Virus record (IMG/VR): IMGVR_UViG_2548876935_000005
Reading direction: 5' to 3' (one strand)
Source: a virus
Taxonomy: Duplodnaviria > Heunggongvirae > Uroviricota > Caudoviricetes
DNA: 7,216 bases
The notes beneath the pieces were generated by a model. The model was not told where the DNA came from. It saw only the letters and a list, made by a program, of their open reading frames with translations, and made no database searches. Below, one piece after another: positions 3,753-4,295 of the stretch (position 1 is the stretch's first letter; every line of letters starts with the position of its first letter). Made by a program: the position numbers and the translations under genes.

Positions 3753-4295
3753 ATGGGGCAAAGCATGACTAAGCTGACCATTAACAGAAAACCGAAAGGC
3801 ATTTACGGCACGCCGCAGAAAACGACGCAGGTGGCGCAGGAGCAGGATAAAACCACATCGGCGCATAAAGTGATGCCCGGTAACCAGAAAGCGCAGCAAA
3901 AGCCCACAGGGGCGACACCGTGGCGGCATATGACCAAACGCCAGCGCAAAAACCGCAGGCGCGTTAACCGCCTCACTGAGTTGTGGCCTGACTTATTCAG
4001 CCGGGAAGCACCGAAGCCGCTTAAGGTGGGGATATTCGACGACCTGATGCAGGATCTCGCCGTCAGGGGGCTGGCATTCGGGCCAGGGGCATTGCGTGCG
4101 ACGCTGGCATCTTATGCGCAGTGTCCGCACTATTACCGCGCCTTAATGGCTGGTGGGGTACGCTACGACCTGAAAGGCCAGCCGTGCGGCGAGGTGACAC
4201 CACAGGAACAACAGGACGCAGAAACGCGGCTGGTGGCGCTGAATGAGAAGCGCAAACGCCAGCGCCGGGCAGCAAAGGAGACAATAGGCGCATGA
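3753..4295 (+). CDS. ProQ/FinO-domain RNA-binding protein (180 aa; alternative start ATG 3765)
   Basis: The segment LWPDLFS...PLKVGIFDDL...YDLKGQPCGEVTPQEQQDAE parallels the ProQ N-terminal FinO-like domain (PLKIGIF.DL ... VDLDGNPCGELDEQH). The N-terminal 60 aa are basic and low-complexity. Confidence 0.65.
   Translation: MGQSMTKLTINRKPKGIYGTPQKTTQVAQEQDKTTSAHKVMPGNQKAQQKPTGATPWRHMTKRQRKNRRRVNRLTELWPDLFSREAPKPLKVGIFDDLMQDLAVRGLAFGPGALRATLASYAQCPHYYRALMAGGVRYDLKGQPCGEVTPQEQQDAETRLVALNEKRKRQRRAAKETIGA

Follow-up and report, generated by a model that had tools for sequence, protein, structure and literature searches.

A FinO-domain gene on a phage satellite

The 7,216-nucleotide stretch of viral DNA analysed here (Caudoviricetes; IMG/VR record IMGVR_UViG_2548876935_000005), which we refer to as the window, carries on its plus strand between an iteron-type replication origin and a perC-like gene a gene for a small basic protein with a ProQ/FinO domain. 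Proteins with a FinO domain make up the third major class of RNA chaperones in bacteria. Judged by its gene order the window is part of a ~14-kb phage satellite of the phage-inducible chromosomal island (PICI) type located at tRNA-Thr next to proBA, and comparison with the named family members indicates that the island protein is a FinO-domain protein of a separate, chromosome-only, satellite-specific subfamily and is not FinO, ProQ or FopA. The gene itself is ordinary in that automated annotation names it and mobile elements are where a FinO-domain protein would be expected.

An open reading frame (ORF) is present at 3753..4295 (+) in the program-made ORF list and was first read as 180 amino acids (aa), however the alignments make the second ATG at 3765 (MTKLTINRKP...) the most likely true start. 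Homologues all begin at the ATG equivalent to 3765 with M[TV][TK]LTINRKP, and the RefSeq protein WP_024226742.1, already named 'ProQ/FINO family protein', uses the same start and maps to 3765-4295. Upstream of 3765 conservation spans just ~15-20 nt including a GGGG Shine-Dalgarno-like motif, and the ATG at 3753, which would mean 4 extra residues, is missing from several relatives. The resulting coding sequence (3765..4295, +) specifies 176 aa with an isoelectric point (pI) of 10.5. The ratio of non-synonymous to synonymous substitution rates (dN/dS; Nei-Gojobori method, eight orthologues) is 0.2-0.35 for the gene and 0.24-0.47 for its N-terminus, and the FinO-like gene is real and under purifying selection.

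Domain, fold and RNA-contact residues

A FinO-like domain had been proposed by eye in the initial annotation and is borne out by profile search, fold and the residues of the 3'-end pocket. Residues 68-172 of the 180-aa reading (3954..4268, +) match the Pfam ProQ/FinO profile PF04352 over profile positions 5-108 of 109 (E = 9.2e-23, 80.7 bits against a gathering cut-off of 27 bits). Among structures in the PDB the best sequence match is to the ProQ N-terminal domain (5nb9, 4e-11) with FinO (1dvo, 1.4e-10), NMB1681 (7.7e-9) and RocC (3e-7) also matched.

An AlphaFold2 model built from an alignment of 21 family members has a block-mean predicted local distance difference test (pLDDT) score of 87-95 over residues 61-170 and mostly below 50 over residues 1-51. 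Helices are predicted at 58-73, 90-101, 107-118, 121-129 and 146-175 and strands at 132-134 and 140-143, so that the model has the mostly alpha-helical FinO fold with its beta-hairpin. When compared with the PDB using Foldseek the top 26 matches are all FinO-domain structures (3mw6, 1dvo and 7rgt/7rgu among them), with template modelling (TM) scores up to 0.84 on the target and root-mean-square deviations of about 2.1-2.3 Å.

The characterised FinO-domain proteins all bind RNA through a pocket specific for the 3'-terminal ribose (PMC9674577). In the complex of RocC with the RocR terminator Gly52, Tyr87 and Arg97 make up the pocket for the 3'-terminal nucleotide and Arg75 is the conserved arginine of helix alpha5 (PMC9674577), and we transferred these roles using the PDB sequence alignments and the conservation list. 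RocC G52, R75, Y87 and R97 align with G89, R111, Y123 and R133 of the island protein (176-aa numbering), each of which is conserved in at least 90% of the 21 family members, and the pocket for the RNA 3'-terminal nucleotide is by this alignment intact. The canonical N-cap S-K-[ST]-x-L-R, which binds consecutive hairpin phosphates (PMC9674577), is replaced in this family by F-G-[PTSQA]-G-x-L-R-A, the island copy having G-P-G-A-L-R where FinO has S-H-K-K-L-R. Among the defining features compared this motif alone departs from the family pattern. The position of the helix at the N-cap is retained in the AlphaFold2 model despite the changed motif, and as NMB1681 likewise lacks the canonical serine N-cap the change is no bar to membership of the ProQ/FinO family.

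Ahead of the domain lies an N-terminal extension (residues 1-56; 3765..3932, +) that is predicted to be disordered and is basic (10 K+R against 2 D+E) with the motif MTKLTINRKPKGIY. Across the 21 sequences T5 and K9 of its beginning (MTKLTINRKPKG) are invariant and M1, L4, I6 and R8 nearly so. An Arg/Lys-rich helix, TKRQRKNRRRVNRLTELWP (residues 57-75; 3933..3989, +; pI 12; helix 58-73 in the model), leads from the extension into the domain, and within it (TKRQRKNRRRVNRL) K62, R66, L70, W74 and P75 are invariant. The domain is followed by a long basic C-terminal helix at the end of the protein.

Relation to named FinO-domain proteins

The closest parallel in build is FinO (1dvo), which shares the domain and fold (34% identity over ~108 residues, E = 1e-18; hhalign probability 98.6%), has a similar succession of a basic and largely disordered N-terminal extension, long basic helix, domain and C-terminal helix, and is likewise encoded at the distal end of a long operon on a mobile element. 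The island protein is nonetheless not FinO proper, as it scores 64.8 bits against the cut-off of 136 of the NCBIfam model NF010317, and the context also differs. FinP, traJ and the tra operon belong to the FinO system and none accompanies the island gene, which is chromosomal at 1652 of 1652 places and never on plasmids, with neither a FinP/Rfam match nor tra genes in the island. By eye the N-terminal motif LTINRKP of the island protein resembles LSLKRKP of FinO; at window positions 3765-3806 MTKLTINRKPKG can be set against MTEDKRPTLSLKRKPG of FinO and TTSAHKV aligns with FinO TTPPAWKV around Trp36. This likeness hints, without statistical support, at a shared origin of the N-terminal chaperone arm; homology of the two extensions is not supported by BLASTP or by hhalign, which aligns the domain only.

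ProQ (5nb9) has the same pocket residues, its G37, R58, Y70 and R80 corresponding to G89, R111, Y123 and R133. In ProQ, however, the FinO domain is N-terminal and is followed by a linker and a Tudor-like C-terminal domain, whereas the island protein lacks these and has a single Pfam domain at the C-terminal end of its 176 aa. ProQ K54, R62, R100 and K101 are not kept, being P, A, E and T in the island protein, the score against the ProQ equivalog model NF003434 is 52.4 bits with a cut-off of 127, and ProQ is a core gene whereas the island gene belongs to a mobile element. ProQ was rejected on these grounds.

FopA (YafB) of the IncI plasmid pCol1B9 is also a FinO-domain protein of a mobile element with a positively charged N-terminal extension and no C-terminal domain, and its branch comprises plasmid- and chromosome-encoded homologues according to its authors (PMC7491321). 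Membership of the FopA branch was rejected since BLASTP aligns the domain alone (34% identity over 94 domain residues, E = 2e-7), the N-terminal regions being unrelated and unalignable, and since the replicon differs; the antisense-controlled partner pair of FopA, Inc/repZ, is absent from the island, which has a primase-helicase and iterons. The best structural matches are NMB1681, the minimal ProQ of Neisseria (3mw6, E = 1.7e-6, TM 0.81), and RocC/Lpp1663 of Legionella (7rgt, TM 0.84), however these are chromosomal global or competence regulators of other bacterial classes with 27-33% identity, and RocC has a long C-terminal region.

Island and operon context

Positions 3300-4720 of the window are 99.9% identical to E. 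coli N1420, in which the island reads as integrase, int-alpA RNA motif (Rfam RF02996), a short helix-turn-helix (HTH) regulator in the AlpA position, AntA/AntB antirepressor, Icd-like gene, DUF4222, primase-helicase, iteron spacer, FinO-like gene, perC-like gene and cargo to which no function is assigned. With an integrase at a tRNA, an AlpA-type regulator, unidirectional rightward genes, a primase followed by an iteron origin, a size of ~8-17 kb and no lysis or tail genes this layout matches that of Gram-negative PICIs (PMC6092414), and the earlier suggestion that the gene is island-encoded is thereby confirmed.

Upstream of the gene lies the primase-helicase of the island (1578..3383, +; D5_N/DUF5906/Pox_D5, P4-family primase C-terminal region), which on Pfam, NCBIfam and PHROG matches is the predicted replication initiator. 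It is followed by the iteron-type replication origin (3384..3752; 369 nt, ~30% GC) with direct and inverted repeats of GGTAGACAG. Seven of the eight window copies of this repeat (at most 1 mismatch) fall within 3384-3752, with 0.72 expected for the whole window, and the last two end 9 nt before 3753.

The FinO-like gene is the second-to-last gene of the rightward block. The last is the perC-like gene (4292..4579, +; 95 aa; Pfam PF06069 PerC, E = 1.3e-31), whose ATG overlaps the stop of the FinO-like gene as ATGA (GCATGATT at 4290-4297), which suggests translational coupling of the two. Just 3' of the perC stop lies a degenerate intrinsic terminator (4580..4606, +; CAGAGGAUGGGACUCUCUUGG followed by U6) with a weak fold. 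In relatives the same site has a canonical terminator, GCCGGGA-UUUU-UCCCGGC with U6 (26 distinct sequences downstream of perC), which in most of them stands 5-6 nt past the perC stop (e.g. loci L028, L007, L049 and L085) and frequently has another terminator behind it; the window copy is a decayed form that keeps the U6 tail on a weak G-U-rich stem. Since a terminator directly follows perC in most variants, the proQ-perC pair would close the core transcription unit with the cargo lying beyond it.

The experimentally studied island EcCIMP1, which is helper phage- and AlpA-dependent (PMC11773190), occupies the same attachment site and has a near-identical integrase. Identity of the two islands was rejected, as EcCIMP1 has a different replicon and no FinO-like gene.

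Distribution and neighbourhood in relatives

In order to place the gene among its relatives we searched complete E. coli genomes with blastn and found it in 1171 of 5426, some of which have as many as 9 copies. Every one of the 1652 places is chromosomal, and all listed places are annotated "ProQ/FINO family protein"; the contiguous proQ-perC pair is found at 80% query coverage or more in 239 genomes. Nearly all protein relatives belong to Escherichia/Shigella and a few to Salmonella and Citrobacter, and a scan of one genome per species returned 2 loci only (E. ruysiae and E. albertii). Plasmid and phage collections hold distant FinO-domain relatives only (at most 39% identity), a single 77% match filed under plasmids being a 4.8-Mb record that is evidently a chromosome.

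For the survey of gene context we used 79 IMG/VR loci carrying the gene, 72 of which were evaluable, on contigs mostly of 10-17 kb. The first reading had placed the gene next to the origin, and this holds for the window, where the iteron spacer lies directly upstream, but not as a conserved feature, since in 33 of the 72 loci ssb, the gene for single-stranded DNA-binding protein (SSB), stands between origin and gene. The gap from ssb to the gene measures about 36-50 nt in relatives. What is constant across 12 architecture combinations is a place after the replication module on the same strand, together with linkage either to a perC-like gene (56/72) or to an 82-aa gene and capsid module (16/72). 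The usual order is proQ-perC; among perC-linked loci the order is perC-proQ in 3 and a small gene intervenes in 3. The adjacency recurs in loci from enteroaggregative E. coli (EAEC) 042, E. albertii, E. ruysiae and Citrobacter, and the minimal 8.2-kb island ROD34 of EAEC 042 has ssb-proQ-perC as its last annotated genes from known families.

In the other 16 loci an overlapping 82-aa PHROG-1957 protein and then an HK97-type major head protein take the place of perC (L054 4399-6624; also L055-L064, L068, L070, L074, L075 and L098), and from these genes we identify the 16 as capsid-forming PICIs with the same cassette. The commonest relative (P0046, at least 1000 contigs) belongs to islands whose downstream genes encode three 600-870-aa proteins (L002-L006 9564-16356) resembling phage DNA-ejection/lytic-transglycosylase proteins annotated in EcCIMP1 (L017 12598-17766), an unusual satellite cargo.

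The primase-helicase varies among loci, being of the D5/DUF5906 type, the DUF927 type or other, and the iterons differ among related islands (GGTAGACAG, TAACCCGCA, GGGACAAG and GGTAGAGG) within the same layout. On these comparisons the gene moves as a cassette between islands that differ in integrase, replicon and cargo. This bears on the idea that the protein takes part in replication, where with primase-helicase and SSB it would bind primer RNA or structured single-stranded DNA at the iteron origin, for which a position always right after the origin or after ssb and the strongly basic extensions would speak. However, the conserved pocket is that of an RNA binder specific for the 3'-terminal ribose (PMC9674577), the cassette pairs with different iterons and with at least 3 replication modules unrelated to one another, which speaks against a partner tied to one replicon, and siblings with the same SSB lack the gene, so that we consider this role improbable.

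At least 10 sibling IMG/VR islands sharing integrase, SSB or primase are without the gene. A perC gene occurs anywhere in 3 of 13 ProQ-less siblings compared with within 700 nt of the gene in 61 of the 79 ProQ-positive loci (Fisher p = 2.7e-4, uncorrected for relatedness). The gene could also be seen as a plasmid finO-like gene that has lost its function and is decaying while islands carry it along, given that truncated or frameshifted copies exist (P0116, several 100-135-aa entries, L098) and that the terminator in the window is degenerate. The low dN/dS across divergent copies, with the N-terminus included, the conservation of the key residues at 90% or more and the full-length gene in about a fifth of complete E. 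coli genomes make such decay very hard to credit.

Search for an RNA partner

Control of a regulatory RNA of the element had been put forward for this gene, and a tie to antisense regulation of the origin has no sequence support. Searched at gathering thresholds and at E <= 5, the window contains no Rfam RNA family, FinP included; matches to P18 and snoR113 were at chance level and disregarded. The hairpins at 3400-3760 are inverted iterons; this includes a 17-bp hairpin at 3411-3460 followed by UUUUAAGUUU on the minus strand, which we considered as an antisense RNA and rejected. Because other islands have different iterons in the same layout, these hairpins are best read as origin architecture. 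To our knowledge replicons with a P4/D5-type primase-helicase and iterons are not controlled by antisense RNA, unlike the FinO/FinP-traJ and FopA/Inc-repZ plasmid systems.

Inside the gene the minus strand has terminator-like sites (3923-3904, 3973-3957 and 3814-3798), which were taken to be by-products of lysine and arginine codons (AAA, CGC) in the basic N-terminus, and the total of 10 terminator-like sites lies within the shuffle expectation of 7.0 +/- 2.8. The region 28-180 has no Rfam match and contains one weak promoter-like and one weak hairpin-like consensus match.

Elsewhere in the islands either the int-alpA RNA or IsrK together with the C4 antisense RNA is found. Each occurs in a subset of the ProQ-positive islands only and both were rejected as gene-specific partners on this ground. 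IsrK and C4, a P4/P1-type immunity RNA module, lie in islands of the E. albertii/EAEC 042 type (L009 6236-6424, L013 5233-5421), and since the island of the window has the int-alpA RNA instead, the island family uses at least 2 different RNA-based regulatory regions. A conserved ~95-nt block ~4.5 kb upstream of the gene forms on the minus strand two hairpins ending in a good terminator (GGCGACC-loop-GGTCGCC followed by UUUGUUUU) between alpA/antA and the Icd-like gene (L001 7987-8082 in the N1420 island, ~700 nt left of the window start; L018 3550-3650; L002 3737-3831). The block has no Rfam match and no covariation, and may be a small leftward RNA or a 3' untranslated region (UTR) in the regulatory region. 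Although 40 of 55 ProQ-positive loci carry it, the block is found in at least 13 ProQ-less islands too, so that it was rejected as a specific ligand and is a feature of PICIs in general.

Proposed function

Taken together the data are in our assessment most consistent, with a probability of roughly 0.6, with a FinO-domain RNA binder of the satellite that would be expressed with induction and bind the terminator-type hairpin and U-tail of one or a few RNAs. The characterised members on mobile elements that we know of (FinO, FopA) each use a specific RNA to control the copy number or spread of their element. A helper phage would switch on the AlpA-dependent programme and the gene would thus be co-expressed with the replication genes. 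The protein would then bind the base of a terminator-type hairpin and the U-rich 3' tail on one or a few RNAs, FinO-domain proteins being known to recognise terminator hairpins plus 3' tails (PMC9674577, PMC12001967), and binding may shield these RNAs from 3' exonucleases and/or speed target pairing as FinO, FopA and RocC do.

The likeliest ligands would be RNAs of the satellite or of the helper phage. The proQ-perC transcript itself offers the most concrete candidate in its 3' end, which in relatives has a short GC hairpin and a U6 tail, and binding there would set the amount of the PerC-like regulator. Other candidates are the int-alpA RNA, immunity RNAs of the IsrK/C4 type, the RNA with the conserved leftward terminator and helper-phage RNAs. 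A loose precedent for a functional link between ProQ and PerC exists in enteropathogenic E. coli (EPEC), where the effect of host ProQ on ler is modulated by PerC (PMC12426089).

Several observations weigh against this proposal. Because the Ser-Lys-Ser/Thr N-cap is replaced by Gly-Pro-Gly and the proline removes one backbone NH, hairpin binding could be weaker or different. Within the window there is neither an Rfam family nor a convincing antisense RNA, and among the island RNAs considered (int-alpA, C4/IsrK and the ~95-nt block) none co-occurs specifically with the gene. In the window a degenerate terminator follows perC, which weakens the idea of auto-regulation for this copy. The gene is also dispensable for the PICI life cycle generally, since EcCIMP1 and other siblings are without it.

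The target might instead be the host. A host-directed accessory regulator would act mainly on chromosomal RNAs, in competition with the ProQ regulon or as an extension of it, in line with the earlier idea that host ProQ targets are titrated, and with the PerC-like protein would reprogramme host physiology or virulence and not the cycle of the satellite. PerC-like proteins of PICIs do affect virulence loci, EcCIMP1_025 repressing LEE1 and some homologues activating the enterocyte effacement locus (LEE) (PMC11773190, PMC6092414), and the pocket residues common to ProQ are conserved. Besides plasmid RNAs FopA and ProQ also bind chromosomal ones (PMC7491321), some sibling islands do without the gene, as would be expected of an accessory gene, and a 2026 survey places it among host-interaction genes (PMC13612085). 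However, the gene is part of the core rightward block, upstream of the terminator dividing core and cargo, and in capsid-forming PICIs it directly precedes the head-gene module, so that its expression is probably tied to satellite induction and not to the lysogenic state. We regard action on the host as a tentative alternative that is unlikely on balance.

A bolder version of the satellite-directed RNA binder is that the FinO-like and PerC-like proteins form a dedicated two-gene satellite switch, with the chaperone at the end of the AlpA-induced operon. A bound terminator-type 3' end would here time the shift from satellite replication to packaging, interference or host reprogramming, the ligand being the proQ-perC mRNA itself, an RNA of the helper phage, or a satellite immunity RNA (C4/IsrK or int-alpA type). 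We hold this to be distinctly doubtful. If true, no RNA-chaperone layer would have been described before it in phage-satellite conflict, and about one fifth of E. coli genomes would have it.

Other genes of the window

A role in anti-phage defence was dropped as PADLOC gave no matches for the FinO-like gene or its neighbours. Past the perC terminator the cargo comprises a 380-aa predicted lipoprotein (4714-5856) with a coiled-coil N-terminal half and no Pfam or PADLOC family, then a strong terminator (5868-5890) and a 107-aa membrane protein (5921-6244); these two proteins may be surface or exclusion factors. Upstream of DUF4222 the ORFs at 572-1060 and 1086-1286 both match PHROG 340, the first also PHROG 2512, and the pair has the look of a small satellite gene that was duplicated in tandem or fused. 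Because this stretch differs from strain N1420 the module around 572-1286 appears to be mosaic. At 7050-7216, running off the window end (L001 15760-16287), lies the beginning of a 175-aa protein with an N-terminal HTH, MSKAEYAKYKGVSRQTVYDWIEKG, and a weak HTH_17 match below the Pfam cut-off, which could be an excisionase, an AlpA-like regulator or the small terminase subunit of the satellite.

Relation to earlier descriptions and significance

Genes of this kind have been recorded on satellites before. The 2010 genome paper of EAEC 042 lists a gene 'similar to proQ' beside a 'PerC-like' gene in ROD34 (PMC2808357), a pair that we confirm here, and in 2026 a ProQ/FinO-like chaperone was reported in an Enterobacter cloacae PICI (PMC13612085) and a ProQ/FinO-like regulator in Vibrio satellite-plasmids (PMC13230959). 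These reports are annotations only and none defines subfamily, position, PerC linkage or function. The subfamily, its fixed position, the spread of the cassette over PICI and capsid-forming PICI backbones and the linkage to perC and its terminator were not described before.

The RNA ligands of the protein would tell whether satellites use post-transcriptional control in their own life cycle or for host rewiring. The subfamily shows tight linkage to PerC-like regulators, and the LEE virulence island is modulated by some of these regulators; the subfamily could also account for extra FinO-domain activity in pathogenic E. coli that studies of K-12 ProQ have missed.

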